A stretch of DNA of 64,000 bases from a virus: the IMG/VR virus record IMGVR_UViG_3300042197_002234, positions 64,001-128,000 of that record. One strand, given 5' to 3'. Below, piece by piece: positions 20,886-64,000 of this stretch (position 1 is the first letter of the stretch; every line of letters begins with the position of its first letter). A program made the translations under genes and the position numbers. Under the pieces are notes generated by a model that was not told the origin of the DNA, ran no database searches, and saw nothing but the letters and a program-made list of their open reading frames with translations.

Positions 20886-21563
20886 CTAAGTTTTGTTTGA
20901 TTTTCGAATATTTTCCTCGCCCCACAATGGTTGGAGGTTTTCTAATGACCAACATTTCATAAATTCTTCGTCCCCAATTTCTACTATATTATGGACAGAA
21001 ATGGGTGTTATATGGTCAACATGCCAATCACCATAGTTATCCCATGTCATACCGTCTTTAAATTGTTTTTCTAAGTGATTAATAAGTTCTTCAGGTGTAT
21101 ATTTTAGAATATCAAAATAATGTCCGTTTTTTTGAACATTGTTTTCTTTTAATACCTGATAAATAGCGGTTCTAAAATTATTGATTAGTTTATAGATGGG
21201 GTCAGTATCTTTACGATGTTTTTCGTACTTACGTTTATAATCTCTATGTTTATCAATATTTTTTTCTCTCCATTGTTTATGATACTCATTAAGACGTTCT
21301 CTATTTTCTTTAGACCATTTTTGGTGACTTTCTGAAAGTCGTGTTTTATTTTTTTCTCTATATTTTTTATCGGCAACTTTTTTACCGCCTAAAAACTTTC
21401 TTCCACTACCTTTAATAACCACCCCATTTTCTTTTAATATTCTACTTATGGTAAAAGTGGACCAATTAAATTTTTCAGATATTTCGCGTAATCCTTTAAG
21501 TTCATCGACAAACATTACTTTAATTTCATTAATTTCTTTCTCAGTTGGGGTAATCTTTTTCAT
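20886..21563 (-). CDS. HNH homing endonuclease
   Basis: WHVDHITP..CWSLENLQPLW.EEN..K; HTH-like N-terminus; late motif 21568-21576 favours the ATG at 21563. Confidence 0.8.
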   Translation of the reverse strand: MKKITPTEKEINEIKVMFVDELKGLREISEKFNWSTFTISRILKENGVVIKGSGRKFLGGKKVADKKYREKNKTRLSESHQKWSKENRERLNEYHKQWREKNIDKHRDYKRKYEKHRKDTDPIYKLINNFRTAIYQVLKENNVQKNGHYFDILKYTPEELINHLEKQFKDGMTWDNYGDWHVDHITPISVHNIVEIGDEEFMKCWSLENLQPLWGEENIRKSNKT

Positions 21564-42107: not shown

Positions 42108-42502
42108 GGGGGTAACTCGGAATTGACTGACATAGTTGGTTATTCGGGGCACGCAGTGAGAGGGTTCCTATCACTTAAATCTATGGAGTCAACGATTAGA
42201 CGGCAACGTTCTAAACAAAATGGCGACTATCGGTCTTATCCGTGAAGACGCTGCGGTTGTAGCCTAAGGGATTAGGAAACACCATTCGGGTCGGGAGGAC
42301 ATTAACCCAGGAACAGAAGTCCTTATCAGGTGTGGTTTCTATCTTAAAAGGAACAAGTGGAGGATTAGTTCTCAGTAAACCGAACCACTTTAAAAATAAG
42401 GGAATTGTGAAATTTCGGAACATTAGCTTAAATGTTGTCCTAAGCGTGTAGTCCTTAGTAGTCAAGATGGACAAGACGACGGTTCGAACCCGTCTACCTC
42501 CA
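42108..42502 (+). ncRNA. ssrA: tmRNA
   Basis: 5' GGGGGTA..AATTGAC; 3' T-arm GACGGTTCGAACCCGTC + TACCTCCA (G3.U70); tag ORF 42202-42267 GNVLNKMATIGLIREDAAVVA*; TATATTTG promoter 42074-42081. Confidence 0.92.
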
Positions 42503-42506
42503 CTTA

Positions 42507-43549: not shown

Positions 43550-44400
43550 CTTAGGCTGAGAATACACCTTTTGTTGAGAACCTTTAGGGACATTATTGTT
43601 TCTTCCCGTTTCCACTTCCTTTTGAGAAGTATTTCTCAGTGACGGTTATTTAGGTGAACCACTCCTTGAGGTTTGAATTACTCTCATCTTACTTGACTCT
43701 TTCCGAGGATGCCTCCCCAGTTCGTCCTTGCGGGACTAAAGGTTTTTCGGATAACTACACGTTGGCTTGGGACCTCAGTGTGCAATGAACGGCTCATTAC
43801 TAAGTAGTCACCTTTCATTCAAACCTGACGGACACTTTTCCTTTTATTATTATTAAATGGTCTTTAATTTCAAATAAAGAGTTTTGTGTCGTGGATTGTC
43901 GAAGTAGTGGTCCGTCTGAGGATTTGTTATCTTTTGAACAACAAAATACCAAACTACTCCGTGAGATGTCCCCACCTCCATACTTCAAGACTACTTCGAG
44001 AAAATCCCTTTGGTAAAGGAAATTCAAGGATAATGTCGGCACCACCCGTTTGTTATCATACCTTTCGGTTTTAAGTATCCTATGATATTGGAACCCTCAA
44101 TAATGATTTTGGAAAACCATGTTTTGATTGATTCCTACGGGTTATTCCTATTGGTGTTCCCACCTCAAACAGACGACCCACATCGCCTGTTCATCTAACC
44201 ACTTTCCCTACAGCGTTGCCCTCGGTACTAAAGGTTAAACGGTATCCCGCTTGTGTACTCGACCTCGGTTTCCCAAGACGCAAATCTGTCAACACAACAG
44301 ACTCACTTTATCCCACTTTCGTGGTTTATTTAACGACCATACACGGCCGATTATCGTTTTCAAGTTATCATCACTCCGAAGAGTTACTTTCACCTGATGG
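43550..44400 (-). ncRNA. GOLLD-like giant ornate RNA (~850 nt)
   Basis: GC-richer, no credible ORF, many GNRA/UUCG hairpins; the segment GGAGTAG..ATTTTGTTGTTCAAAAG..ACACAAAAC..ACGGGAAGAAACAATAA..CAGCCTA (43960-43552) resembles my recollection of the conserved GOLLD 3' half. Confidence 0.6.
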
Positions 44401-44413
44401 ATAATTCAATAAG

Positions 44414-44741
44414 TCAAAGAACTTTTGAGAGTTGTATCTGAATCGTTGTCATTCTCAATTGTTTTACAAAGTTAAGAAGATTTTTTCTATTTGTCAAATT
44501 TTTCTTAAACTTTTTTTTTGATTACTATAACCGTTGTGGTAATATGTTTCACTTACACTTTAAATGCGAAGGACATCTGCTTTATTTCATACAGTTGAAA
44601 GTTTGTCCCGTAGTCACTTTCCTCACATACAACAGTAGCCCTACGGACCTAGACTGTTTCTGTAACCAATATTTTCAAAGAACTTTTGAGAGTTGTATCT
44701 GAATCGTTGTCATTCTCAATTGTTTTACAAATTTAAGAAGA
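44414..44741 (-). repeat. Direct repeat pair: promoter - hairpin - boxA-like unit
   Basis: 44414-44470 identical to 44675-44731 (57 nt, 261 nt apart), extendable with 1 mismatch to 44480/44741. Confidence 0.95.
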
Positions 44742-52096: not shown

Positions 52097-52939
52097 TTAA
52101 TTTGTAGTACAATTAACAAATTCGTATCCATTACTTGTTTTTCTCCAAACAATAAATACAAGTTCAATTTTACTCAAATCCCAATTGGAATTATAATCAA
52201 TAACACGGGACCAATGGTACACCTCACCACTTGACAAATTGTTAAAAATTTCTTCACCGAAAGCTCCTGATGTGGTTGCGGATTTAGCCAATACGTGGTG
52301 ATGAATGTGGGGATTTTGAGAACTACCATTTTGAGATGCCGTAATCTCTTTATGTAAAAATAATGCAGACATGGTATATACACCTGATAAATTTTCAAAG
52401 GATTTAATATACACATTAACATTTAATTTACCAGCGTTTTTACCCGCACCTTGGGTTATGTGACTACCAATAGATAATTTTGGCGTTTGACTATTTTTAT
52501 TTGTTATTTCACCTGGTATTCCTGAAGTACTTGTACCTACAAAATTGTCATTGACAAAGAAATTAGGCGTGCCTGTATACTGCCATTTTGTAGAAAATTC
52601 ATCAACCAAAGGACCGTTGTCAGGTGTGGTTAACCCATCGTTAATTTGTAAAGACATTGCCAACACATTACCTTTATGGTTGTTATATAATTCCTCAAAT
52701 CTAGTGACACCCCATCCACCACAAGGACCACACCAAGTTGCGGTAAATTTACCAAAAATGGAGTTTTGTGTACTATCAACATACACACAAGACCCGTCAT
52801 TTATAATCGCATTTGGGTTATAATTAACCGATTTTGAATCGGTGCATCCTTTAATTGCCGAATCATCATCAACCAATAATGTTGGTTCTTGACAACTAGC
52901 CAATATAAAGAATAATAAAAATAATAAGTAGTTTTTCAT
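52097..52939 (-). CDS. Omp28-related thioredoxin-fold lipoprotein
   Basis: Lipobox LASC, GCTD..S.NYNP.A..DGSC repeat, TATWCGPC, GTP.F.V, C-terminal Ig-like domain with H.HVL. Confidence 0.75.
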   Translation of the reverse strand: MKNYLLFLLFFILASCQEPTLLVDDDSAIKGCTDSKSVNYNPNAIINDGSCVYVDSTQNSIFGKFTATWCGPCGGWGVTRFEELYNNHKGNVLAMSLQINDGLTTPDNGPLVDEFSTKWQYTGTPNFFVNDNFVGTSTSGIPGEITNKNSQTPKLSIGSHITQGAGKNAGKLNVNVYIKSFENLSGVYTMSALFLHKEITASQNGSSQNPHIHHHVLAKSATTSGAFGEEIFNNLSSGEVYHWSRVIDYNSNWDLSKIELVFIVWRKTSNGYEFVNCTTN

Positions 52940-53006
52940 AATTAATTTTGAAATATTGTATAGATTATATATACATAAATATAATAATTTTTACTTTAAT
53001 TTAAAG

Positions 53007-53504
53007 TTATTTTATTTCAAACGCACAACGGACAACACGACGTTTTTTAATTGCATCTTCAGTGTTACCAATAACAACACCATCTTTAATGGTAAAAGCG
53101 TGACCACGAACAAGAATGAAAAAAGTACCTTTAGGATTTTGTTTTATAAAAGTACCAACGGTCATTTCACGTTTAATTTTTTGACCTTTAACTTTAACTT
53201 CATAAACCAAAGAATTTGCCATCCAATTATTAGTACGATTACCAACTGTATACACACGTTTACCGTTAACTTCAGTATTATTGTCAGACATATTAACCAA
53301 TTTTGATGAGGTCATAAACGTACCTTTTCTTGGTTTTCTTTTAAAATGTTCGGCAACATATTGGTGAGCAAAATCATAGTCAACTTCAAATGACGAGGCA
53401 AAAGCTCTAACAACACAATCATTTGTTTCACCTTTAGCGATTGAGGATTCAAAATATCCTTTAATAGCTTCGTATCTGTTGCAATATGGGAGTCTGTCAT
53501 TCAT
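53007..53504 (-). CDS. Hypothetical protein (NDCVVRA..H putative Cys hydrolase)
   Basis: Cys/His motifs; TATCTTTG promoter 53509-53516 sets the start. Confidence 0.5.
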   Translation of the reverse strand: MNDRLPYCNRYEAIKGYFESSIAKGETNDCVVRAFASSFEVDYDFAHQYVAEHFKRKPRKGTFMTSSKLVNMSDNNTEVNGKRVYTVGNRTNNWMANSLVYEVKVKGQKIKREMTVGTFIKQNPKGTFFILVRGHAFTIKDGVVIGNTEDAIKKRRVVRCAFEIK

Positions 53505-53555
53505 AATACAAAGATACAAAAAAAATCTGAACCAAAAAAATATTGGTAAAAAAAG

Positions 53556-53629
53556 TGGACCCTGCAGGGCTTGAACCTGCGACCCCTGCATTATGAGTGC
53601 AACGCTCTAACCATCTGAGCTAAGAGTCC
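53556..53629 (-). tRNA. tRNA-Ile2/Met (CAT)
   Basis: Full cloverleaf, loop CT CAT AA, C4-G69, A73 favours Ile2. Confidence 0.85.
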
Positions 53630-53819
53630 TAAAAATAAAAAATGATGTGGGGTATTCCTATTTAGTTTAAATTAACCAGTAGTCTGTTAATGTACACTTG
53701 TTGGTTTTACATCCCCACACCAATAACACACTCATAAGCATTCTACTTCCAGCTCCGAGAAATCGTATCTAACTTAGCCCATCTCACCGCTGTATGGGTA
53801 CTTAAGTTTATGTGTTTTG

Positions 53820-53891
53820 TAGCCCCTACGGGAATCGAACCCGTCTTTTTAGGATGAAAACCTAATGTCCTAACCGATAGACGAAAGGGCC
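53820..53891 (-). tRNA. tRNA-Glu (TTC)
   Basis: TTAGG TT TTC AT CCTAA; T-loop TTCGATT. Confidence 0.9.
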
Positions 53892-53949
53892 ATAAATAAA
53901 AGGTGTTGAATCATCCCTACGCCATTATAGGAACACCTTTTGTTTTAAT

Positions 53950-54425
53950 ATTTGGCGAATTAATATTCCTACCTATATTCCCAAGATTCGTCAGAACATA
54001 GTAACCATCCAAGGTAGGCCTATACTATTACACTCCGTCCATATTTACTCACCTAATCAGATTAGTCATAGGTTTTTCAGATACAGCGTTCAGTGCTACC
54101 CTCAGGACATCTTCACCCTACCCCATAGTTACGTGGTGGTCTCACTCGGAAGAAGAGTGTGTATTGTAGAATTGTCCAGTATTTCTACAACTTGTGGATT
54201 GTATTATGACTAATTAAAGCCCCTAACCCCCTTAATCCATAATGGGGAACTCTTGTTTTAAAGATTCCAACATACCTGAAAGAACTTCCCCTTCTCAGTG
54301 AACACCGTTTATAAGGTGTTATATGTTTTTCACTTTGTGTGTATCTATCCCCCATAGCCCCAAAGACTTCTAGTCGGGGTTCACACACCATAACAGTCGA
54401 GTACTACTGTTAATCGTGGGGTCAT
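53950..54425 (-). ncRNA. Candidate ~470-nt multibranched ncRNA in the tRNA array
   Basis: Perfect helices 54061-54070/54205-54214, 54164-54171/54183-54190, 54391-54397/54406-54412, and others. Confidence 0.55.
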
Positions 54426-54429
54426 TTGC

Positions 54430-54521
54430 TGATTAAAGGGAATCGAACCCAATCCTCCGACCCCGTTTACCCCTATGAGGGGGCCACTAGGGTCAGTATG
54501 CCCATTACATCATAACCAATC
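54430..54521 (-). ncRNA. tRNA-like RNA with extended anticodon arm (apex CAT)
   Basis: D-like and T-loop (GGGTTCGATTCCC) present; weak acceptor stem. Confidence 0.5.
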
Positions 54522-54568
54522 GTCAGTTTCGAACCTGACAGTTCAAGGTTAATTACTCCTTGAGTTTG

Positions 54569-54646
54569 TTGCGATTTGTGGACTCGAACCACACAGGGGG
54601 TGCGACCCAACTCGGTTCATGAGACCGACCTTACACCTGTATCGCA
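54569..54646 (-). ncRNA. D-arm-reduced tRNA-like RNA (CAT) with long variable arm
   Basis: TCGGT CTCATGA ACCGA; variable arm GGG/CCC; TGTGG TTCGAGT CCACA. Confidence 0.6.
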
Positions 54647-54651
54647 GTTTT

Positions 54652-54736
54652 TGGTACTCGGAGCGGGACTCGAACCCGCACGGACAATGTCCAGCAGATT
54701 TTAAGTCTGCCTTGGCTACCTTTACAACACCCGAGC
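54652..54736 (-). tRNA. tRNA-Leu (TAA)
   Basis: GCAGA CT TAA AA TCTGC; variable arm; encoded CCA. Confidence 0.95.
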
Positions 54737-54808
54737 GTTTATTTCAAAGAACACTACAAAGATAAAGAACAAATTTCATATGAACAATACCTTTATAATT
54801 TTTTTTTG

Positions 54809-54912
54809 TCCACTCTGTTGGATTCGAACCAACTTACTCACTCTATATTCGGATACTGCAGTATCAGGCGATATAGAGGTCATCGTGTTTTACCACATAA
54901 CACTAAGAGTGA
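54809..54912 (-). ncRNA. tRNA-like RNA with extended anticodon arm
   Basis: Acceptor TCACTCT/AGAGTGG, D arm GTGTT/AACAC, T arm GTTGG TTCGAAT CCAAC; long stem CTCTATAT/ATATAGAG + GATAC-TGCA-GTATC. Confidence 0.65.
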
Positions 54913-54917
54913 ATTTG

Positions 54918-54991
54918 TAGTCGGGGTGGGAATTGAACCCACGACCTTGATGATATAAGCATCCTGCTCTCGACCCCTGAGCTACCCGACC
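54918..54991 (-). tRNA. tRNA-Ile (TAT)
   Basis: GGATG CT TAT AT CATCA; full cloverleaf. Confidence 0.88.
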
Positions 54992-54997
54992 AAATGC

Positions 54998-55205
54998 CCC
55001 CACCCTGAGATTCCAGGTGAGTAGATATATCGGTTTTCTTTCTTTCAATAAACCTGTGGGTCTTACCCTCTTAAAATTAGTCAACACTACTGGGAGGGAT
55101 TGTGTCGGTTCCCTTTGTTCCCACGATGTCCCACTCGCGCCGTAGACATTCTGCGGAATCATTCTTAAAGTCTTGATTCGAAGACTCTGAGTATCTCTTA
55201 CTCAT
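54998..55205 (-). ncRNA. Candidate structured RNA
   Basis: Hairpins tgagta/tactca, agtctt/aagact, ccgcaga/tctacgg, gtggg/cccac. Confidence 0.4.
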
Positions 55206-55207
55206 TG

Positions 55208-55279
55208 AGCTTCCACCCAGGGTCGAACTGGGGACTACTGATTACAAGTCAGTTATTTTACCTGCTAAACTACAGAAGC
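55208..55279 (-). tRNA. tRNA-Thr (TGT)
   Basis: ACTGA CT TGT AA TCAGT. Confidence 0.92.
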
Positions 55280-55289
55280 TTATTTATCG

Positions 55290-55436
55290 TATCTCCGATG
55301 GGAATCGAACCCACCTTGTAAATTACTTGTCAATTGCTCTGACTTATCTCTACAAACTAGTATAAGTAGTGTTAGGCCAATTAACCATCATTTACCCACT
55401 CACTGTTTTTGGTGCGACCTCAACAGATACGGAGAT
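55290..55436 (-). ncRNA. tRNA-top-half RNA with a non-tRNA ~115-nt body
   Basis: Perfect acceptor ATCTCCG/CGGAGAT + A73; T arm GTGGG TTCGATT CCCAT; no anticodon arm. Confidence 0.65.
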
Positions 55437-55442
55437 GTTTTG

Positions 55443-55522
55443 TACCGAAGGAGAGACTCGAACTCTCACGCCATATGCAGATGCTTCTAAAACATCCGTG
55501 TCTACCATTCCACCACTTCGGC
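55443..55522 (-). tRNA. tRNA-Leu (TAG)
   Basis: GATGT TT TAG AA GCATC. Confidence 0.92.
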
Positions 55523-55633
55523 AATTTGTGGGTAGGGTCCTCCCACATTAGACTTAAGGTTTCGGATTCTTTAAAGACAATTCCTAAATGTCAACCGCCC
55601 GCATGTCCTTCACCTTAAAGCGGGAGCCCCTTA

Positions 55634-55709
55634 TGGAGCGAGAGACGAGATTTGAACTCGCGACCCCAACCTTGGCAAGGTTGTGCTCTACCAACTGAGC
55701 TACTCCCGC
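55634..55709 (-). tRNA. tRNA-Gly (GCC)
   Basis: CAACC TT GCC AA GGTTG; CCA encoded. Confidence 0.95.
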
Positions 55710-55714
55710 AATTA

Positions 55715-55914
55715 AAAGAAACTTTCCTTCTACGCTCACCGTAGTTTTGGATTTTACTGATGGTTGGTTCCCCATCACCTGTTATGAGTGCACCATAGAG
55801 CAGGGTCCATCACAGAGTCCTTCGGGTCATGTACCTTCGTTATAGTTGCGACCTATTTGAAGCCGAAGTACCTTTCAACGGTGCTAATCCGTCTTCTGTA
55901 AGGAAAGGTTCTTT
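55715..55914 (-). ncRNA. Candidate 200-nt multibranched RNA
   Basis: 14/15-bp closing helix 55715-55729/55900-55914 enclosing at least 4 hairpins. Confidence 0.55.
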
Positions 55915-55917
55915 TTG

Positions 55918-55990
55918 AGCAGGTGGAGGTAATCGAAACCTCATCTTCAGAGTGGAAATCTGACATAATATGCCATTATACGACACCTGC
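55918..55990 (-). tRNA. tRNA-Gly (TCC)
   Basis: TCAGA TT TCC AC TCTGA. Confidence 0.9.
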
Positions 55991-56085
55991 GTATTCGAGT
56001 CAGAGTAGTCACGGCCACCTCTGTTCCTTCTGACTCTTATTATAACCGTGGCAAAATGTGGCTCGACCCAAGTTATAATCATTAG

Positions 56086-56160
56086 TTGCGGGGGTAGGAT
56101 TCGAACCTACGTCATTCGGCTTATGAGACCGAGCTGGAACCAACTCCAGTCCACCCCGCC
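56086..56160 (-). tRNA. tRNA-Met (CAT), initiator-like
   Basis: TCGGT CT CAT AA GCCGA; 1:72 mismatch. Confidence 0.85.
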
Positions 56161-56165
56161 ATTTG

Positions 56166-56237
56166 CGGTCCGTGCGGGAGTCGAACCCGCCACACTGCCG
56201 TGACAGGGCAGCATTATAGCCGATTAACTAACGGACC
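56166..56237 (-). tRNA. tRNA-Asp (GTC)
   Basis: CTGCC CT GTC AC GGCAG; G73. Confidence 0.93.
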
Positions 56238-56243
56238 TAATTG

Positions 56244-56318
56244 TGGAGACAGTGGGAATTGAACCCACCACACTTTCCTTGCAAGGGAAAATCGCCAAGC
56301 CTTGGTACATGTGTCCCC
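56244..56318 (-). tRNA. tRNA-Ala (TGC)
   Basis: TTTCC CT TGC AA GGAAA; G3.U70. Confidence 0.93.
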
Positions 56319-56414
56319 ATTTTTTTTTCTTCACCAATATGTCAAAGAACCTTTATCTTTTTAACAACACTACAAAGTTACAAAAGAAATTTTAAAAAAA
56401 CAACATCCTTGAAA

Positions 56415-56446
56415 AACAAAAAACCCACCTTTTTATGGGTGGGTTT
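56415..56446 (-). terminator. Attenuator terminator 1
   Basis: AAACCCACC-CATAAAAA-GGTGGGTTT TTTG. Confidence 0.9.
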
Positions 56447-56471
56447 GGTATTTCATAGTGTTAGTTTAAAA

Positions 56472-56543
56472 TCATACCATACCCACCTGAGTCAATCCTA
56501 TTGCTTCAGTTGTGCCTAAAAGTATGATATCTAAATTTCTCAT
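56472..56543 (-). CDS. Leader peptide 1 MRNLDIILLGTTEAIGLTQVGMV (not in the ORF track)
   Basis: ATG 56543, TGA 56472; A-rich upstream; last codons complementary to the terminator 5' strand. Confidence 0.8.
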   Translation of the reverse strand: MRNLDIILLGTTEAIGLTQVGMV

Positions 56544-56616
56544 TTTTTGCGTTATTGTTTTTTCTTAAATATACCCATTTTTAAAAAAGTATCAATATTA
56601 AGTTTAAAAATACCGA

Positions 56617-56811
56617 TTATTTTTTTGCTTCGGTAATTTTTTCTTTAAACTCAAACCTAATTGTATCACCAACACTATACTTTCGATTGGTACCAATAAT
56701 ACCCGTTTCTAAATGATTTTCAGCGTTTTTTACCTCATAGGTATAGGTTCCGTTAACATCAATGTCACAACAAAGAACCAAAAAAAGTTTAATAATTACA
56801 ATCTCTTTCAT
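56617..56811 (-). CDS. Hypothetical protein
   Basis: MKEIVIIKLF.. start is more plausible than 56883. Confidence 0.45.
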   Translation of the reverse strand: MKEIVIIKLFLVLCCDIDVNGTYTYEVKNAENHLETGIIGTNRKYSVGDTIRFEFKEKITEAKK

Positions 56812-56815
56812 ATGA

Positions 56816-57283
56816 TTAATTTTTAGTAAATGATTTATCTGCCCAAGTTTTAGCACCCATACGCTCCCAAATTTGGATATCACACATTTCAGGGAAAGAA
56901 GTTCTCATGTCACCAACAGTCAACACTTCCAAGAACCCTTTGTCAATACCAAACCACTTTCCGCTCTTGGTGGTGTATACGTTCATCCAATGACCGTACT
57001 CATTTTTAACCTGAATGTTAACCAAGGCGTTTTTCTTGAATCCAGCGATTACGTTTTTAGGGTAATCAGTTGTGTCACTCATTGTAATGAAACCAGCCTT
57101 ACATTTTACTGCCACACGAAACTCATATTTTTTATCAGTGTCTTTAATGTGGTTTGACACCATTACGTTTATTAATTTGTCTTTGATTCGAGTTTTGAAT
57201 GAACCGAAGAATACATCTCCAGCCATTGTTCCTACAGTTTCTACGATAATTGAGCTTGGGGTGTTTGTGTTGGTATTTGTCAT
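56816..57283 (-). CDS. Hypothetical protein
   Basis: TATCTTTG promoter 57305-57312. Confidence 0.6.
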   Translation of the reverse strand: MTNTNTNTPSSIIVETVGTMAGDVFFGSFKTRIKDKLINVMVSNHIKDTDKKYEFRVAVKCKAGFITMSDTTDYPKNVIAGFKKNALVNIQVKNEYGHWMNVYTTKSGKWFGIDKGFLEVLTVGDMRTSFPEMCDIQIWERMGAKTWADKSFTKN

Positions 57284-57342
57284 ATTATTTCCGATTTTGT
57301 TATACAAAGATACAACAAAATTTCAAACTACCAAAACTTTTT

Positions 57343-57804
57343 TTAAAAAAGATAAGAATGTCTGTATTGTAATGGAATTGCTAACCCAAAACCCCAATAT
57401 TTTTCATTAGACACACTATAAGCAATTGCTATATCCCATTGATTTCTTTTTTGAGTTATCATCTTTAATGGGTGAAATTTAACCCAAACTTCAGGTTTTA
57501 TTTCTTTATTGGTATTTGGTAATGTATTGAATTTAATACCCGTACCGATAACTAATCCATTTTTTAAAACACCATAATTAATTCCAAATCTGTTTAAATA
57601 AGGGCTTGGATTCATTTGTCCTATCGGTGCTGAAACCATCCACATATTGTAACCTCCTCCCGCATGAATACCAAACCCTTTGGTGTCCAAGTTTTCCATA
57701 GATAACATAAAACTTTGTTCACCAGGAAAATATGTAATACCTGAGTACTGACCCCACACTTTTGACGTAAAAAATAACGTCAATATAAAAATTATTTTTT
57801 TCAT
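57343..57804 (-). CDS. Secreted outer-membrane beta-barrel-like protein
   Basis: Signal peptide, alternating hydrophobic strands, terminal Phe. Confidence 0.5.
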   Translation of the reverse strand: MKKIIFILTLFFTSKVWGQYSGITYFPGEQSFMLSMENLDTKGFGIHAGGGYNMWMVSAPIGQMNPSPYLNRFGINYGVLKNGLVIGTGIKFNTLPNTNKEIKPEVWVKFHPLKMITQKRNQWDIAIAYSVSNEKYWGFGLAIPLQYRHSYLF

Positions 57805-57807
57805 TTG

Positions 57808-57893
57808 TGGAAGTGGTAGGATTCGAACCTACAAGTTTACCGCAAGGGACCTGTTTTACAGACAGGCGAGCACACCATTTGCTCAACACTTCC
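57808..57893 (-). tRNA. tRNA-Tyr (GTA)
   Basis: CCTGT CT GTA AA ACAGG; variable arm. Confidence 0.93.
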
Positions 57894-58104
57894 AAGTTAG
57901 GAAAGAGGAAGATGGTTCAGTGGACATCCTCTTTTACGATTGGCGTTACTCAGGTGTATATCTCCAAACTCCGATGATACCGACCGATATACACTCTCAT
58001 GTCATAGGTATCACCATTCCCCAATCAACCTATAATTTTAAACTAACACCATGACTCCTTTCGACCTTGCACGAGTCGTATCATTCAACTCTGTGTTAGT
58101 TTTG

Positions 58105-58179
58105 CTCCCTCGACAGGATTCGAACCTGTGACCCAACGGTTAACAGCCGTTTGCTCTAAACCTACTGAGCTACGAAGGA
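58105..58179 (-). tRNA. tRNA-Asn (GTT)
   Basis: AACGG CT GTT AA CCGTT; G73. Confidence 0.93.
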
Positions 58180-58184
58180 ATTTG

Positions 58185-58255
58185 CACGGATAGAAGGACT
58201 CGAACCTCCACCAACAGTTTTGGAGACTGGGATGCTACCATTACACCATATCCGT
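58185..58255 (-). tRNA. tRNA-Trp (CCA)
   Basis: CCAGT CT CCA AA ACTGT; G73. Confidence 0.92.
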
Positions 58256-58262
58256 GTGTTTG

Positions 58263-58336
58263 AGGTCAGAGTCAGATTTGAACTGACGAATACTTGTTTT
58301 GCAGACAAGCCCCTTAAACCACTTGGGTATCTGACC
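58263..58336 (-). tRNA. tRNA-Cys (GCA)
   Basis: CTTGT CT GCA AA ACAAG; U73. Confidence 0.93.
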
Positions 58337-58393
58337 TTAGAGTGTAGTGGGGGGTACCTCCCCTGTGGTTACTACACATTTAACCCACTTTAG

Positions 58394-58468
58394 TGTCCCC
58401 GACAGGGCTCGAACCTGTGACCCGTACATTAAAAGTGTACTGCTCTAATCCAACTGAGCTACGAAGAC
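58394..58468 (-). tRNA. tRNA-Lys (TTT)
   Basis: GTACA CT TTT AA TGTAC. Confidence 0.93.
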
Positions 58469-58531
58469 ATAATTTACGGCTCAAAGAATCTGAGTTTGTG
58501 GCTCAGAAACGCCCAATTTTGAGCCGTATTG

Positions 58532-58606
58532 TAGTCAAGGTTGGACTTGAACCAACGACCTTCTGCGTATCAGGCAGACGCTCTAAACCGACTGAGCTAC
58601 ATGACT
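58532..58606 (-). tRNA. tRNA-Ile (GAT)
   Basis: TCTGC CT GAT AC GCAGA. Confidence 0.9.
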
Positions 58607-58695
58607 ATGTTTTAGTTTTACTGAGCAAATATAACCATTTTTTGGTATATAACGCTCTGTTTTACTATTTTTTTTTTAATATTACCCGACATCAA

Positions 58696-59241
58696 TCATT
58701 TTGATTCAAACTTTTTAATAAAATTTTCACGATAATTGTCAATTATTTGTGAAATTTCACTTCTATACTTTGAGTGTATGTAGTGATGGTGTGTCGGACA
58801 TAACGGTATTAGGTTTTCTATTGAGTTATTAGTATGAACTTCATCGTAGTGGTGAACCGCAACTATTTTATTTTCACCACAAACAACACATTTGTGTTCA
58901 TGATGTTCAAAACAGATTCTACGATAACCATTTTTAGTTTCCGAATATTTACCCCAATTAGGGTTATTTTCACCACTTCTAAAATAAGTATTAGAACAAG
59001 AATGAGAACATGTAACTTTTTCATCTCTATTACCTTTTGAAGTTTCAAAAGATTTGTTACAAACAGGACATTCTTTAATTATTCTATTATAGATTAATTT
59101 TCTACTCCTCAAATGACTAATATCCACCCCATTTTGGTTTATGAATGATTCAAACTTTTTTCTATTTGACCCATTATCATATCCAAACATTTTTATTATC
59201 GCTTCTGACTTAGTTTTCGATGTTTTAATTATATCCTCCAT
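58696..59241 (-). CDS. HNH endonuclease inserted in the tRNA array
   Basis: CPVC..CSHSC, CVVC, VHHYDE.HTNN..ENL.PLCPTHH; late motif 59245-59253. Confidence 0.85.
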   Translation of the reverse strand: MEDIIKTSKTKSEAIIKMFGYDNGSNRKKFESFINQNGVDISHLRSRKLIYNRIIKECPVCNKSFETSKGNRDEKVTCSHSCSNTYFRSGENNPNWGKYSETKNGYRRICFEHHEHKCVVCGENKIVAVHHYDEVHTNNSIENLIPLCPTHHHYIHSKYRSEISQIIDNYRENFIKKFESK

Positions 59242-59304
59242 ACTAATAAATATCTAAATTTGTCGTAAAGTCAAATTTTAATCAAAACTTGTTTAAACGA
59301 TTAG

Positions 59305-59379
59305 TCGGGTAGACTGGACTCGAACCAGCACAATGTCCTCATCCCAAATGAGGCGACCTACCAATTGGTCTACTACCCG
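59305..59379 (-). tRNA. tRNA-Pro (TGG)
   Basis: CCTCA TT TGG GA TGAGG. Confidence 0.93.
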
Positions 59380-59389
59380 TTACTTTCAG

Positions 59390-59475
59390 CGGAAGGAGAG
59401 GGGCTCGAACCCTCGCGGCTTTGACACCCTAACAGTTTAGCAAACTGCCCCCTTCACCAACTTGGGTACCCTTCC
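59390..59475 (-). tRNA. tRNA-Ser (GCT)
   Basis: GCAGT TT GCT AA ACTGT; variable arm; G73. Confidence 0.92.
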
Positions 59476-59512
59476 TTTTTTTCCGACCTAGCTCGGGAAC
59501 ACACATCGGATG

Positions 59513-59584
59513 TAGTTCTTGAAGGACTTGAACCCTCAATTCCTCGTCCGTAGCGAGACGTGTTATCCATTACACCAAAGAACT
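59513..59584 (-). tRNA. tRNA-Arg (ACG)
   Basis: TCTCG CT ACG GA CGAGG. Confidence 0.92.
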
Positions 59585-59588
59585 ATTT

Positions 59589-59678
59589 TGGCGGAAGCGA
59601 AGGGAATCGAACCCCCAACACGCTATTAACGTGCTACTTGTTTTCAAGACAAGCTCCTCGTCCATTCGGACCACTTCC
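59589..59678 (-). tRNA. tRNA-Ser (TGA)
   Basis: CTTGT CT TGA AA ACAAG; CCA encoded. Confidence 0.95.
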
Positions 59679-59782
59679 ATTTTTTTAGGTCGTGACGAAC
59701 CCATCTGTCACTTCTTAATAGATTCTTGTAGTTTACTTACCGCGGTTCAATCCGTTACTAACAGGGAACCCAACCTATTTTG

Positions 59783-59854
59783 GGTGTAGGGACGGTACCG
59801 ACCCGTCTTATCTAGTTCCACAAACTAGTGCATCACCTTAATGCTTCAAACACC
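59783..59854 (-). tRNA. tRNA-His (GTG), divergent
   Basis: CTAGT TT GTG GA ACTAG; G-1/C73; atypical T-loop GTCGGTA and 2 acceptor mismatches. Confidence 0.7.
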
Positions 59855-59863
59855 ATGTAAAAT

Positions 59864-60000
59864 TGATGGTAATTGGATTTATCAGGAATCCCGTCCACGA
59901 CTTCACACACCATTAGAGAGTTGAGTATTTCTACTTATCCTTAGTGTGTACCCTTGCGTCACGTCTCTCCACGCTTACCAATCTACGCCTTGTACCATCA
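59864..60000 (-). ncRNA. Candidate 137-nt structured RNA
   Basis: Perfect closing helix tgatggta/taccatca. Confidence 0.4.
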
Positions 60001-60006
60001 ATTTTG

Positions 60007-60140
60007 TAGTCAGGGTCGGACTCGAACCGAATACCGTTCAAGACGGATTAGACAACCTTACGACTCCATAGAACCCACAAGTGTCTGGGACTATTGGTCT
60101 TGGGGACTCGGGTACCATCCCTCATTACGTCCACCTAACT
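60007..60140 (-). ncRNA. tRNA-top-half RNA with expanded body
   Basis: Acceptor AGTTAGG/CCTGACT + A73; TCGG TTCGAGT CCGA; no canonical anticodon arm. Confidence 0.6.
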
Positions 60141-60215
60141 ATTTACCCCACTTCACCAGCTTAACGGACTGGCTGCCATGTGGGAGTGGGGGTTTCCTGT
60201 TATTTCAGGACTCCG

Positions 60216-60288
60216 TGGTGAGAGCTGGAATCGAACCAGCGGCACGTAGGGCTTCAACCTACTGCTCTACCTACTGAGCTATCACACC
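60216..60288 (-). tRNA. tRNA-Phe (GAA)
   Basis: GTAGG TT GAA GC CCTAC. Confidence 0.92.
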
Positions 60289-60298
60289 ATATAAAAAA

Positions 60299-60435
60299 TG
60301 ATAGTGTTGGGATACCCGTCTCGTCCCAATCTTAACTGCTTAATCGTAGTTTTACGAGGCCTCGGCAGAGGGTGTTGAACACTGTGAACCTTACAACTAC
60401 TTTGTCGACTTTCATTGTAAGAGTGACCACTATCA
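60299..60435 (-). ncRNA. Candidate 137-nt structured RNA
   Basis: Perfect closing helix tgatagtg/cactatca; ttggga/tcccaa. Confidence 0.4.
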
Positions 60436-60569
60436 ATATTTTTTCTATTTCAAAGAACCCTTTTCGTCTGGGGTGTAGGTAACCCTATCAAACCTACACC
60501 CCCATCGTTTGTGAATACAAAGTTACAAAACATTTTTCTAACTAACAAGTACCCACTTATTTTTTTTTG

Positions 60570-60643
60570 TAGTCCCTGTCGGATTCGAACCAACGACCCT
60601 CTGCATGTAAGGCAGATGCTCTAACCAACTGAGCTAAAGGACT
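60570..60643 (-). tRNA. tRNA-Val (TAC)
   Basis: TCTGC CT TAC AT GCAGA. Confidence 0.93.
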
Positions 60644-60649
60644 ATTAAG

Positions 60650-60719
60650 TTGCGTGTTCGGGGTTCGAACCCGATTGACCTTCCTTATGAGAGAAAGTTC
60701 TTTTCCCCTAAGCCACGCA
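60650..60719 (-). tRNA. tRNA-Met (CAT), divergent D arm
   Basis: TTTCT CT CAT AA GGAAG; TCGGG TTCGAAC CCCGA; short D arm. Confidence 0.6.
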
Positions 60720-60726
60720 ATTTATG

Positions 60727-60797
60727 TTACCCCCCAAGGATTCGAACCTCGATTAAGTGGACCAAAACCACTTGTCCTGCCATTAGACGAGAGGGTA
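60727..60797 (-). tRNA. tRNA-Gln (TTG)
   Basis: AGTGG TT TTG GT CCACT. Confidence 0.92.
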
Positions 60798-60830
60798 ATT
60801 TTAGGTTACCAATATGTCAAAGAACCCGTA

Positions 60831-60865
60831 AAACAAAAAACCCCGAACTTTTTATGGTTCGGGGT
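60831..60865 (-). terminator. Attenuator terminator 2
   Basis: ACCCCGAAC-CATAAAAA-GTTCGGGGT TTTTTGTTTT. Confidence 0.9.
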
Positions 60866-60897
60866 CTGTTATCTGTTTTACTTTCAAATATCCACAA

Positions 60898-60987
60898 TTA
60901 TTCCGAACCAATATTTTGCACACGTGGATACCAGCAATTTTTAAATTGCGACTTACTGATAATGACCATATGTTTATTAGTTCTCAT
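60898..60987 (-). CDS. Leader peptide 2 MRTNKHMVIISKSQFKNCWYPRVQNIGSE (not in the ORF track)
   Basis: ATG 60987, TAA 60898; TAACTTTG promoter 61011-61018; last codons complementary to the terminator 5' strand. Confidence 0.8.
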   Translation of the reverse strand: MRTNKHMVIISKSQFKNCWYPRVQNIGSE

Positions 60988-61047
60988 TGTATTTTAATTT
61001 ATAAGTATTACAAAGTTAAGAAAAATTTTAGACAAGTCAAACTTTTT

Positions 61048-61305
61048 TTAAAATCTTTTCGCAATTTTAAGAATTGTTTCCTCTTCTTCCCTAGTTAACA
61101 TCAACCTACTGTTAGATAATTTATCCAAAGCGATTCCCCATTCTAACTCCATAATGTTTTTTCGTTCTTCAGGAACATTGTAATAAGTTGGTTTGATATG
61201 ACCATCCTCGGTCAGAATATCAATCAATTCTTTAATTTCTCTTTTTGAACAAGCGTCAACAAAATCGCTTGGGTCTATGTCTACATAAGATTCAAATTCT
61301 GGCAT
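61048..61305 (-). CDS. Hypothetical protein
   Basis: Clean ORF. Confidence 0.6.
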   Translation of the reverse strand: MPEFESYVDIDPSDFVDACSKREIKELIDILTEDGHIKPTYYNVPEERKNIMELEWGIALDKLSNSRLMLTREEEETILKIAKRF

Positions 61306-61317
61306 ATTTTTTTAATA

Positions 61318-61551
61318 TTAAATGGTTTCGTCAATTTTATCTTGAATTTCAATAATTTTTGATTCAATGTATCTTTCTAATTTTTCTGACACATTAAGAT
61401 ATTGTTCCCTTAGTTTATGAAATTCTTCATCATTAATTTCTTTAAAAGAACTATAATGCTTGAAACAATAGTGGAATCCTTCCGCACCTATTCTGTATCG
61501 AACCATTTCAAAGTTCTCTAATTCTTCATGTAAATAATCTATATTACTCAT
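61318..61551 (-). CDS. Hypothetical protein
   Basis: Coupled ORF. Confidence 0.6.
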   Translation of the reverse strand: MSNIDYLHEELENFEMVRYRIGAEGFHYCFKHYSSFKEINDEEFHKLREQYLNVSEKLERYIESKIIEIQDKIDETI

Positions 61552-62267
61552 TGGTTTAATTTTCTTTTACAGTTATTACAAAATTCTTTACGGTTAGTAC
61601 CATTAACTTTCATTAAACAGTCTTCGTCGTCGCAGTGATTTAGACCAAAGTTGTGACCTAATTCATGATTAGCAACATTCTGTAGGTTAGAAATTCTATA
61701 GTTACCGTTAATCTTTAATTGATAAGTACTAACAACAGCGGCGTCATGGTAAAATCTTGCGTAACCACTAATTAATTCAAGGTTATTCTCATGAGAACAC
61801 AAAGGATGATTAGTAACATATACGTGACGACCATCACCATCACCTTCTTCCAAGTTTAAAGTTTCAAGAGCATTAACATATTCACCGTTAATGAAATAAC
61901 GAGAGCTAGGGTTTGAATGTGGATTACCGATTTTAGTTTCTAAACCGTAAAAATTTTCGATTCCCTGGCAAACAGTCTCCAAATCTTCATGACTGTAATC
62001 ACCAAAACCATGAACATATACAATGTTTTTCGGTTTTTTAGTTTCAGATTTAACAACAGGTTTAGTTGATGGTTTATTTTTTACATCAACTGATTTACCA
62101 TATTTACCTAACTTATGTTCTTTGTCATAAGAATCCGCATATTCAGCAGCACTTTGTTTGAATTTATCAATACTATAGTTGTGTTTTTCGGCAAGTTCAA
62201 ATAAAGAACCAACAATTACTACAACAATACAAAGATTTACAATTGATTTTAATGGTGATGTTTTCAT
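61548..62267 (-). CDS. Membrane-anchored metzincin zinc protease (archaemetzincin/M54-like)
   Basis: N-terminal TM, HELGHNFGLNHC..CLM..FC..C. Confidence 0.85.
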   Translation of the reverse strand: MKTSPLKSIVNLCIVVVIVGSLFELAEKHNYSIDKFKQSAAEYADSYDKEHKLGKYGKSVDVKNKPSTKPVVKSETKKPKNIVYVHGFGDYSHEDLETVCQGIENFYGLETKIGNPHSNPSSRYFINGEYVNALETLNLEEGDGDGRHVYVTNHPLCSHENNLELISGYARFYHDAAVVSTYQLKINGNYRISNLQNVANHELGHNFGLNHCDDEDCLMKVNGTNRKEFCNNCKRKLNQ

Positions 62268-62321
62268 ACTACAAAGATACTAAAATTATTTTAACTACCA
62301 AAAAATAATGATAAATATTTG

Positions 62322-62393
62322 TAGGCCCACCAGGACTCGAACCTGGAATAGAAGCTTAGAAGGCTACTGTTATATCCCTTTAACTATGGGCCC
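62322..62393 (-). tRNA. tRNA-Arg (TCT)
   Basis: GTAGC CT TCT AA GCTTC. Confidence 0.92.
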
Positions 62394-62402
62394 TAATCTA
62401 AA

Positions 62403-62582
62403 TTAGATTTGTTTGATGATGTACTTATGACCTGAATCTGAGTTTTTTTCAAAAAGAGACCTCATTTTTTCAGCCTCTTCTTGAGTTTCAAACTCCATTA
62501 CATCATCTTGACCGTCTAACAAAACAACAGGTAATTCAACGTTAGTTGTCATCTGTTTAATCATTTTAACTATAATATACAT
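62403..62582 (-). CDS. Hypothetical protein
   Basis: Start uncertain. Confidence 0.5.
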   Translation of the reverse strand: MYIIVKMIKQMTTNVELPVVLLDGQDDVMEFETQEEAEKMRSLFEKNSDSGHKYIIKQI

Positions 62583-62616
62583 AACACTGTAAAGGTAATA
62601 CAAAAAATTAAAATAA

Positions 62617-63705
62617 TCAAACTCTTTTTTTACCACCAAAAACATTAGGAGTTAAATTAGTTCTATTTGGTCTGACATTTTTTAGCATATTTGCTTGAGC
62701 TGATAATGAGTTTTTCTTTAATTCTAATGTTTCTTGTCTATTTTTGGGTTTGTTTTGTATTACAGGTTTAATATTTTTTTCTGTTGGTTTATATATAGAC
62801 CTATTATTGATAATTTGATTAACTAAATCGTATTTAACAGTATCTTTAATTTTATCTTTATTAGGATTAAATGGTTTATCATTTATTTTAAATAAAATAT
62901 CATTAAGTAAGTTTAAAGATGTTTGTTTATATTCTAAATCAGTATTATTTCTAAAATCATTATCATAATCATAAACTAATTTTAGTTTTTTATAGGGTGG
63001 TAAAGAATATATATATTTAGCAGTTCTACTTTGTAGTGTTGAATCTTTAATCGCCCCAGTTATTGAGTACGATTGATTTTCATGCCAATTATAAATGTAT
63101 GTAATTTCGTTAATAAATTTGTAATGTTCATTACCCGCCATTTCTAACATAGGTAAACCTATTCCAATATCTACTGCAGCTTTTAAATAATCATTTTCAA
63201 AAATTAAATCTTTTAAATTTATTGACCTAAATAAAAAAGCCCTATATGTTCTCATATGTGAAAAATTCCATGGAGTACTTCTAGCTTTGTCAGGATTTGC
63301 TTTACCATAATTCATACTTCTACCATTTGTATCAACCCATTTAGTACCGCAAATCCAAATATTTTGGTCAGTATAGATTTTATTGATTAACCCAAAAACA
63401 TTATTATCCAACAATTTATCATCACCATCAATTTCTATAATAACATCAGCCCATTCAATATCACCATTATTATAAATTATATCTATAAAGTTTTTAGCTT
63501 TGTATTTTTTTTGTTTATTTTTTATTAAAACAAATCTTTCATCACCATCTATTGTTTTTTCTGCGATAGAATACGAATTGTCGGTAGACATATCGTCAAC
63601 AAGATAACAAACAAAATTTGTAAAATATTGATTTTTTATTGAATTTATACAATCTGATATATATTTTTCAGAATTCCAAAATGTTGATACAACTACTAAT
63701 TTCAT
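62617..63705 (-). CDS. Glycosyltransferase family 2
   Basis: WNSEKYI..CI.SI..Q, VDD.STD, IDGDD. Confidence 0.85.
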   Translation of the reverse strand: MKLVVVSTFWNSEKYISDCINSIKNQYFTNFVCYLVDDMSTDNSYSIAEKTIDGDERFVLIKNKQKKYKAKNFIDIIYNNGDIEWADVIIEIDGDDKLLDNNVFGLINKIYTDQNIWICGTKWVDTNGRSMNYGKANPDKARSTPWNFSHMRTYRAFLFRSINLKDLIFENDYLKAAVDIGIGLPMLEMAGNEHYKFINEITYIYNWHENQSYSITGAIKDSTLQSRTAKYIYSLPPYKKLKLVYDYDNDFRNNTDLEYKQTSLNLLNDILFKINDKPFNPNKDKIKDTVKYDLVNQIINNRSIYKPTEKNIKPVIQNKPKNRQETLELKKNSLSAQANMLKNVRPNRTNLTPNVFGGKKRV

Positions 63706-63769
63706 AAAAAAGGGGTATGGTCTATTTATAAATAGGTTCACTAACTTATTTTTTAAAAAATATCATAAA

Positions 63770-64000
63770 ATGTCTGAAAACAAATACATAATTCCTTCGC
63801 CGAGAGTGTTTCATGTTATACCGTGGAATAGTGACAAAAATATTGGTAAGTCATATAATGAGATGATGGCGATGGTTAGAAGTAATGATTGGGTTTGTTT
63901 TTTAGATGGAGATGCGGTTCACACAACATCATTTTTTGGTGTTAGGATTGAGGAGGTAATTAAAAATAATCCTGATTATTCTTTATTTACTTGTTACACA
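63770..64000 (+). CDS. Partial GT2-like protein (runs off the window)
   Basis: MSENKY..NIGKSYN...DWVCFLDGDA. Confidence 0.6.
   Translation, partial: MSENKYIIPSPRVFHVIPWNSDKNIGKSYNEMMAMVRSNDWVCFLDGDAVHTTSFFGVRIEEVIKNNPDYSLFTCYT

Follow-up and report, generated by a model that had tools for sequence, protein, structure and literature searches.

Introduction

By what signal, and at what moment, does a bacteriophage switch on the tRNA genes that it carries? This question is raised by a 64,000-nucleotide (nt) stretch of viral DNA, hereafter the window, which corresponds to bases 64001-128000 of the 195.5-kb IMG/VR virus record IMGVR_UViG_3300042197_002234 (estimated completeness 65%) and which includes, all on the minus strand, the 25 tRNA genes that ARAGORN detects in the record under default settings. 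Two large tRNA blocks of the window are each preceded by a short open reading frame (ORF) and an intrinsic terminator, and an original prediction, made by a reader of the sequence alone, had proposed that these elements form attenuators in which the codons of a leader peptide mirror the tRNAs encoded downstream.

Phage tRNA arrays are viewed as compensating for codon usage, for host tRNA degradation or for tRNA-targeting defences, and leader-peptide attenuation is textbook knowledge for amino-acid operons. In the literature searched, whose coverage is incomplete and does not amount to proof, neither leader-peptide attenuation of tRNA genes nor a boxA element on phage tRNA arrays was found described.

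In this work, we examined the two window cassettes of this uncultured giant phage by codon statistics, RNA folding and comparison with other phage contigs. Our results indicate that each cassette is probably a ribosome-mediated leader-peptide attenuator placed ahead of a tRNA operon and followed by Nus-type antitermination. The anatomy of the cassettes, the statistics of their codons, their conservation in other phages and the covariation of their parts are direct observations, and all four support the trp-type attenuation that had been proposed.

Results

Organization of the two tRNA cassettes

Both cassettes lie on the minus strand with all their parts, and display the same order of elements: promoter motif, short ORF, antiterminator, terminator, boxA and tRNA genes (Table 1). 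The common upstream architecture put forward in the original prediction, that is, an ORF beginning with ATG AGA, last codons able to pair with the terminator, and the terminator itself, was borne out for both blocks.

The 11 tRNA genes attributed to block 1 were recovered, in the order Ala, Asp, Met, Gly(UCC), Gly(GCC), Leu(UAG), Thr, Ile(UAU), Leu(UAA), Glu and Met. Block 2 follows the order Gln, CAU tRNA-like, Val, Phe, His, Ser, Arg, Ser, Pro, Ile(GAU), Lys, Cys, Trp, Asn and Tyr; the 15 genes claimed for it are reached as 13 tRNAs found with default ARAGORN, a tRNA-His(GUG) at 59853-59782 that needs a relaxed ARAGORN threshold (Rfam 30.2 bits, over the gathering score), and a CAU tRNA-like gene at 60719-60650 that stays under the gathering score (Rfam 22.7 bits). 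This block is interrupted by an HNH-like ORF (59241-58696) and by long structured spacers. The ORF, located mid-block on the minus strand (58696-59241, 181 aa), gives a weak match to HNH endonucleases (E = 0.005, under the Pfam cut-off) and looks like a homing-endonuclease-type insertion. Outside both blocks, a lone tRNA-Arg(UCU) gene is found at 62321-62393 (minus strand), directly after an 80-aa ORF; its codon, AGA, is codon 2 of both leaders.

Codon content of the leaders

Leader 2 contains a codon for each amino-acid type and for each of the 14 anticodons of block 2, as expected from the claim that it is cognate to the whole block. Leader 1 had been said to cover all 11 tRNAs of its block; this holds for the amino-acid types (8/8) and for the anticodons under four-way wobble (10/10), but strict wobble leaves 9/10, the gap being Leu-UAG, for which the leader offers CTT only. 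The absences listed earlier were confirmed, with K, H, S, F, C, W, Y and P missing from leader 1 and A, D and L from leader 2. The amino acids are divided between the two leaders as they are between the two blocks, and swapped leader-block pairs cover just 5/12 and 5/8 amino-acid types. With regard to isoacceptors, leader 1 carries two ATA codons and block 1 a tRNA-Ile(UAU), the Ile codons of leader 2 are only ATT and ATC and block 2 carries a tRNA-Ile(GAU), and both Gly and both Ser anticodons are matched by codons in the respective leaders.

Against random peptides drawn from the codon usage of the phage itself, the coverage of leader 2 has P = 6.6e-4 for amino acids and 1e-5 for anticodons, and that of leader 1 has P ~0.1 and ~0.03, respectively. 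With windows cut from real genes as the null, leader 2 reaches 0.003 at the amino-acid level and about 0 at the anticodon level, and leader 1 reaches 0.03 and 0.005. The genome has 237 ATG ORFs of comparable length, of which leader 2 alone covers block 2 completely. The match is densest in the interior of the peptides: all 15 of codons 4-18 of leader 1 (P about 1.4e-5) and all 23 of codons 4-26 of leader 2 (P about 1.6e-5) are cognate to the respective block, and leader residues lacking a block tRNA are confined to codons 2-3 and to the last codons, which form the antiterminator.

Terminator and antiterminator structures

The two strongest terminator-like sites in the interval 53000-62500 are terminators 1 and 2, each with a T run, and folding of the tails gives their hairpins energies of -17.5 and -25.4 kcal/mol. 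Both carry the identical loop CATAAAAA, as had been noticed. The last codons of each leader carry a copy of the terminator 3' arm (56488-56473 and 60911-60902), located at positions -14 to -3 and -11 to -2 relative to the stop codon, and the pairing with the terminator 5' strand that had been proposed for these codons was seen in the nascent-RNA folds of both cassettes. The antiterminator of cassette 1 is a 13-bp interrupted helix with 56453-56438 (duplex energy -14.8 kcal/mol); that of cassette 2 has a duplex energy of -14.3 kcal/mol and beats 98.7% of random 45-mers.

For both window cassettes, nascent RNA ending short of the 3' arm folds as the antiterminator, and in the full-length RNA the terminator is formed together with a second helix, which joins early to late leader codons and resembles the trp 1:2 helix. 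When a ribosome footprint is set on codon 8 of leader 1, the minimum-energy fold is the antiterminator, with no terminator, and a footprint at the stop codon of the same leader leaves the terminator alone. A thermodynamic switch was rejected for cassette 2, for which the terminator was the most stable fold in every case. Since this terminator persists in the minimum-energy fold, the choice between terminator and antiterminator would have to be kinetic, as it is in known attenuators.

An rRNA-type boxA past each terminator

Past both terminators lies a 19-nt motif, GGTTCTTTGACATATTGGT, which the original prediction had overlooked. The motif is identical to the boxA of the 16S-23S spacer in Bacteroidota rRNA operons; exact 17-mer matches among bacterial genomes are almost all from Bacteroidota, and in 5/5 rRNA operons checked it stands between the spacer tRNAs and the 23S gene, the classical place of a spacer boxA. 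It also agrees at 9/12 positions with the Aquifex boxA 12-mer (PMC3177189). That the motif is a phage promoter was considered and rejected on account of this identity and of its position in host rRNA operons. We read it as an rRNA-type boxA that, by analogy with those operons, would recruit Nus factors. This boxA and the TAnnTTTG promoter motifs point to a Bacteroidota host.

Shorter versions of boxA are found ahead of other RNA genes at 60459, 54752, 44683 and 44422. One of these genes, in a minus-strand unit spanning 43553-44474, encodes a GOLLD RNA (Rfam 327.7 bits over 43553-43961); upstream of it lie a promoter motif at 44474-44465 and, at ~44422, a boxA-like site. A 45-nt repeated leader is common to the GOLLD unit and a second promoter-boxA unit, which lies at ~44735-44683, ahead of another structured RNA. 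Given that the GOLLD RNA and the neighbouring unit carry boxA, the rRNA-type element appears ahead of several phage non-coding RNAs besides tRNAs. A further case is a DUF2693-FD RNA (RF02926, 75.2 bits) at 5097-5172 of viral contig L021, with the boxA motif ~10 nt later; stretches identical to this unit occur in contigs L034, L046, L053, L067, L103 and L108, and it is another unit of a phage non-coding RNA with boxA.

The association of a hairpin with boxA allows another interpretation of the cassettes, in which the hairpin is no terminator but mainly an RNA-processing element or the boxB-like part of a Nus-type site, and translation of the leader affects processing or stability of the transcript instead of termination. 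The leaders of rRNA operons do pair a hairpin (boxB) with boxA, and ahead of the internal boxA at 60459 stands a hairpin devoid of a T run. However, the hairpins that follow the leaders are GC-rich and directly followed by at least 6 T, the canonical form of a terminator, and rank first and second among the terminator-like sites of the region, whereas the internal boxA sites, which have no leader, also have no T run. With these observations, we regard a processing role as highly improbable.

Conservation and covariation in other phages

IMG/VR contigs were searched with two patterns, boxA by itself and boxA preceded by a T run, and cassettes were defined by a boxA with a stable hairpin and T run at most 110 nt before it and a tRNA gene at most 300 nt after it, ignoring ORFs. 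Many contigs matched the initial motif search, and 30 cassettes displayed the complete arrangement of hairpin, boxA and tRNA. In 30/30 of them an ATG ORF of 19-36 codons is present, with its stop codon 21-38 nt before the hairpin.

The original prediction had suggested a permutation test among related phages, which was carried out with 29 non-redundant cassettes, including the two of the window and excluding Met, and which gave a strongly positive result: leader content tracks the tRNA set of its own cassette. Leaders cover 0.977 of the amino-acid types of their own block versus 0.736 when permuted, and 0.945 versus 0.647 of the anticodons under strict wobble, with 0/20,000 permutations reaching the observed value in either case. 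When a single representative of each of the 16 leader families was retained, coverage was 0.958 versus 0.688, the top permuted value being 0.852 (0/20,000). Furthermore, resampling of synonymous codons with the peptides held fixed, for which the codon usage of the window phage was applied to all loci, gave 0.849 +/- 0.020 versus the observed 0.945 and never reached it (0/5,000), so codon choice tracks the anticodons too. The relation is plainest in small blocks: a Pro-Pro-His-Gln block has a leader rich in Gln, Pro and His; an Asp-Asp-Glu-Glu-Val block, one rich in Asp, Glu and Val; a Lys-Lys-Val-Tyr-Tyr block, one rich in Lys and Tyr; and a Ser-Tyr-His-His-Ser-Leu-Leu-Leu block, one rich in Ser, Leu, His and Tyr.

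The antiterminator was assessed by comparing the last 11 codons plus 12 nt with random 45-mers of the same locus. Pairing with the terminator 5' arm lies above 95% of the random 45-mers in 24/29 cassettes, and the strand has a median location of -21 to -8 relative to the stop codon. As the stems are unrelated in sequence and the antiterminator match nevertheless holds, this pattern amounts to a three-way covariation, in which the antiterminator tracks the stem. The gap between hairpin and boxA measures at most 25 nt in 22/27 cassettes and holds a promoter motif in only 3/27; given how rarely a promoter occurs there, transcription normally has to pass the terminator to enter the array.

These data bear on two alternatives. 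In the first, short ORFs and terminators would have come to lie upstream of the arrays by chance. At the amino-acid level, the P value of leader 1 is only 0.03-0.1, as this explanation would allow, but the joint statistics of the window are ~1e-6, the ORF is present in every one of the independently ascertained cassettes, and no permutation reaches the observed coverage; we count chance as already refuted, its probability being negligible. In the second, the ORFs would encode functional small proteins followed by ordinary terminators, the arrays would be transcribed from separate promoters, and the amino-acid match would reflect co-adaptation of these genes to the tRNAs of the phage. Promoter motifs do occur inside both blocks and, in cassette 1, past the terminator, and leader families are recognisable at the peptide level. 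Nonetheless, co-adaptation could affect codon choice and not amino-acid composition; the short distance from hairpin to boxA leaves no room for a promoter in 22/27 cassettes; the last codons copy the terminator 3' arm whatever the sequence of the stem; the spacing from stop codon to hairpin is fixed at 21-38 nt; and the peptides diverge freely apart from their composition. A small-protein function is, in our assessment, very unlikely to account for the leaders, and leader-peptide attenuation remains the reading that we prefer.

Homologues of leader 2 were identified at loci L094, L232, L158, L150 and L200, and of leader 1 at L095 and L232, and homologous leaders diverge freely in sequence. The published genome LR756501, from a 735-kb uncultured phage, carries a like cassette ahead of a Trp-His-His-Phe-Lys-Ser block. 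BLAST searches of GenBank phages with the leader regions gave no close relative, the matches being mainly to tRNA genes; they included one 36-nt terminator match in LR756501 and a boxA-like site, in a setting devoid of tRNAs, in the Cellulophaga phages phi46:3 and phi13:2. The site in phi46:3 (L353, KC821622.1, ~21067-21097), a cultured phage, has one core mismatch and is overlapped on the opposite strand by an annotated 36-aa hypothetical coding sequence; ARAGORN found no tRNA gene in the 5-kb stretch around it. A tblastn search with the leader 2 peptide gave no meaningful match. Regarding neighbouring genes, the 155-aa protein has 68%-identical relatives on contigs L004-L006, which lack an adjacent array, and the peptidase-like neighbour used as a search query found no relatives. 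The terminator-boxA pattern was present in 46 of 401 sampled Bacteroidota genomes, a reversed control pattern occurred at a similar rate, and 0/20 of the sites examined were followed by tRNAs; as far as this sample reaches, the cassette design appears to be confined to phages.

Promoters, internal entry points and other RNA features of the window

The coordinates of all cassette parts are listed in Table 1. The TAWCTTTGTA motif of promoter 2 is also found ahead of ordinary genes at 53507, 57303 and 62270, and a sigma-70-type match (10/12) overlaps the promoter region of leader 1 at 56595-56568. No promoter motif is present between terminator 2 and tRNA-Gln, the interval that holds boxA. The caveat of the original prediction, namely that internal promoters would provide basal expression, proved correct, with motifs at 56371-56380, 54755-54764 and 60516-60525. 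It is weightiest for cassette 1, where one motif lies between terminator and boxA and transcription from it would skip the attenuator. The internal unit of block 2 (60445-60525) has no leader ORF and is predicted to give an ungated entry for Phe and the tRNAs that follow it.

Table 1. Parts of the two tRNA cassettes and their positions in the window
Feature	Position	Strand	Remarks
Cassette 1
Promoter-like TATATTTA	56566..56573	-	22 nt before leader 1 start; same element and spacing in many related cassettes
Leader ORF 1	56472..56543	-	23 codons + stop; starts ATG AGA
Antiterminator 5' strand	56473..56488	-	Last four codons and start of stop codon
Intrinsic terminator 1	56411..56446 (hairpin 56446-56421)	-	9-bp stem, loop CATAAAAA, T run
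Promoter motif TAACTTTGTA	56371..56380	-	Between terminator 1 and boxA
boxA, GGTTCTTTGACATATTGGT	56333..56351	-	16 nt ahead of tRNA-Ala
tRNA block 1, 11 genes	53555..56316	-	ARAGORN, Rfam
Internal promoter motif (54755-54764) and boxA-like site in block 1	54738-54764	-	
Cassette 2
Promoter motif 2, Bacteroidota -7 type, TAACTTTG	61011..61018 (match 61009-61018)	-	23 nt before leader 2 start codon
Leader ORF 2	60898..60987	-	29 codons + stop; starts ATG AGA
Antiterminator 5' strand	60902..60911	-	Codons 26-29; pairs with terminator 5' arm and part of loop
Intrinsic terminator 2	60828..60867 (hairpin 60867-60838)	-	11-bp stem, loop CATAAAAA, T run
boxA, GGTTCTTTGACATATTGGT	60808..60826	-	~10 nt past terminator 2, ~10 nt ahead of tRNA-Gln
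tRNA block 2	57807..60797	-	ARAGORN, Rfam
Internal promoter motif (60525-60516), hairpin without T run, second boxA-like site (60459-60445)	60445..60525	-	

Additional RNA features were observed in the window. A phage tmRNA missed by default ARAGORN is found at 42108-42505 on the plus strand (Rfam 68.7 bits, over the gathering score), and a freshwater-1 RNA (RF02979, 76.3 bits) lies inside block 1 between the two Gly tRNAs, at 55752-55814 on the minus strand. The inter-tRNA spacers within 53630-60440 are long, GC-richer and devoid of ORFs and Rfam matches, examples being 53892-54651, 54992-55206, 55280-55441, 59854-60214 and 60289-60440. Several contain the T-arm-like sequence GGNNTCGAACC (~54440, 54575, 54815, 55300 and 60015, as plus-strand text), and the spacers could represent tRNA-like RNAs of degenerate or unusual form, or structured RNAs of another kind.

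Discussion

The proposed operation of the cassettes is as follows. The phage promoter would start a transcript in which the initial 70-90 nt code for a short peptide, with interior codons to be decoded by the tRNAs encoded downstream. When decoding is fast, the ribosome would reach the last codons or the stop codon and mask the 5' strand of the antiterminator, so that the GC-rich terminator hairpin could form and RNA polymerase would stop. When decoding is slow, with any of the sampled tRNAs scarce, damaged or uncharged, the ribosome would lag, the antiterminator would capture the terminator 5' arm, and polymerase would continue. The boxA, once transcribed, probably recruits NusB/NusE and their partners, as it does in host rRNA operons, and these factors would let the long untranslated array escape premature (Rho-type) termination. 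The resulting feedback loop would hold up the supply of each block's tRNAs, and since the output (tRNAs) corrects the signal (slow decoding), each cassette would act as a homeostat for its tRNA set. Translation of the leader, termination and readthrough, binding of Nus factors and the physiological trigger are the steps that we infer from the sequences in this scheme.

The same attenuator hardware could have evolved for another signal, amino-acid starvation, in which uncharged tRNA and not the abundance or integrity of tRNA would be sensed. The anatomy is that of a trp-type attenuator, and the mechanism cannot distinguish a missing tRNA from an uncharged one. However, extra tRNA would not relieve a shortage of amino acid, and the output would hence not correct the signal; furthermore, what the leaders follow is the precise complement of tRNA genes, down to the isoacceptor anticodons, and no metabolic pathway. 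We consider starvation an unlikely signal, and sensing of the tRNA pool itself is the reading retained in what follows.

In nature, the pool might be lowered by heavy late translation, by host shut-off or by host anticodon nucleases. The leaders might accordingly serve as multi-channel alarms for attack on the tRNA pool, within a counter-defence circuit that combines an attenuator with borrowed rRNA antitermination; an anticodon nuclease, or the phage's own shut-off of its host, would remove one sampled tRNA, and the ensuing stall would turn the whole set on. We put this forward tentatively, as a possibility of rather low probability.

Several observations weigh against attenuation as the explanation or restrict its reach. 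The match of leader 1 by itself is only modestly significant. The regulatory codons are mostly single, unlike the runs found in trp or his leaders, and sensitivity per tRNA may be low for this reason. The minimum-energy folds of the full-length RNAs retain the terminator, in cassette 2 even with the ribosome at codon 8. Cassette 1 has a promoter motif past its terminator and both blocks have internal promoter and boxA sites, so tRNA expression bypassing the gate may be large; the internal promoters add expression outside the control of the gate, and the share that is gated is only partial. Among the cassettes of other phages, several are homologous and not fully independent, although the test with family representatives still holds, and many of the blocks at those loci are cut by the locus ends.

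The enterobacterial leader attenuators (trpL, hisL, leuL and pheL) are built from like parts, with a promoter and a short ORF that carries regulatory codons. The cassettes further resemble the trp type in their mutually exclusive antiterminator and terminator helices, in the location of the antiterminator strand, which the last codons of the ORF carry, in the GC-rich hairpin with its U run, and in the logic by which slow decoding leads to readthrough; a candidate for the upstream helper helix is seen in the minimum-energy folds of both window leaders. Closest among the known attenuators are the multivalent leaders of thr and ilvGMEDA, in which several amino acids are sensed. In contrast to the enterobacterial systems, the phage cassettes are viral, have a boxA past the terminator, and control tRNAs and not biosynthetic enzymes, so that the output replaces the sensed molecule; moreover, a phage leader samples 8-14 amino acids mostly once, and not runs of one to three. 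The cassettes share no sequence homology with the enterobacterial leaders, Rfam yielding only sub-threshold Thr_leader and Phe_leader matches over the terminator part. T-box riboswitches are alike in that a choice between terminator and antiterminator in the leader answers to the state of tRNA. Nevertheless, a T-box binds one uncharged tRNA directly, by means of a specifier codon and the T-box loop, needs no translation, and controls aminoacyl-tRNA synthetase and amino-acid genes, whereas the phage cassettes use an ORF and read many tRNAs; no T-box match was found in 52500-64000 with Rfam at E up to 1, and the cassettes do not qualify as T-boxes.

With the antitermination site of rRNA operons (boxA with NusB/NusE, NusA, NusG and SuhB), the phage element shares an identical motif of 17-19 nt and a location ahead of untranslated structured RNAs; it differs from the rRNA operons in lying on a tRNA array just past an attenuator, and also ahead of a GOLLD RNA. 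Current accounts of phage tRNA arrays deal with the same kind of gene cluster and share the idea of a restored decoding capacity, but, in the literature searched, treat the arrays as simply expressed, and no built-in sensor of decoding speed was found there.

The design is widespread among phages with Bacteroidota-type signals: 30/30 sampled cassettes and a published 735-kb phage genome carry it, which makes it a general rule rather than a peculiarity of a single contig. If true, the cassettes form a direct loop, in which the sensor is the speed of decoding at given codons and the output is the tRNAs that read them, and by which a virus tunes its translation capacity tRNA by tRNA. This would change the view of how and when phage tRNA arrays are switched on, would explain their split into blocks, and gives a testable link, namely whether tRNA-targeting host defences trigger the arrays. 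For synthetic biology in Bacteroidota, the cassettes could also offer natural and compact devices that sense tRNA availability. Finally, the combination of an attenuator with a boxA of the host rRNA type would represent phages using Nus antitermination for structured RNAs of their own, including the GOLLD RNA.

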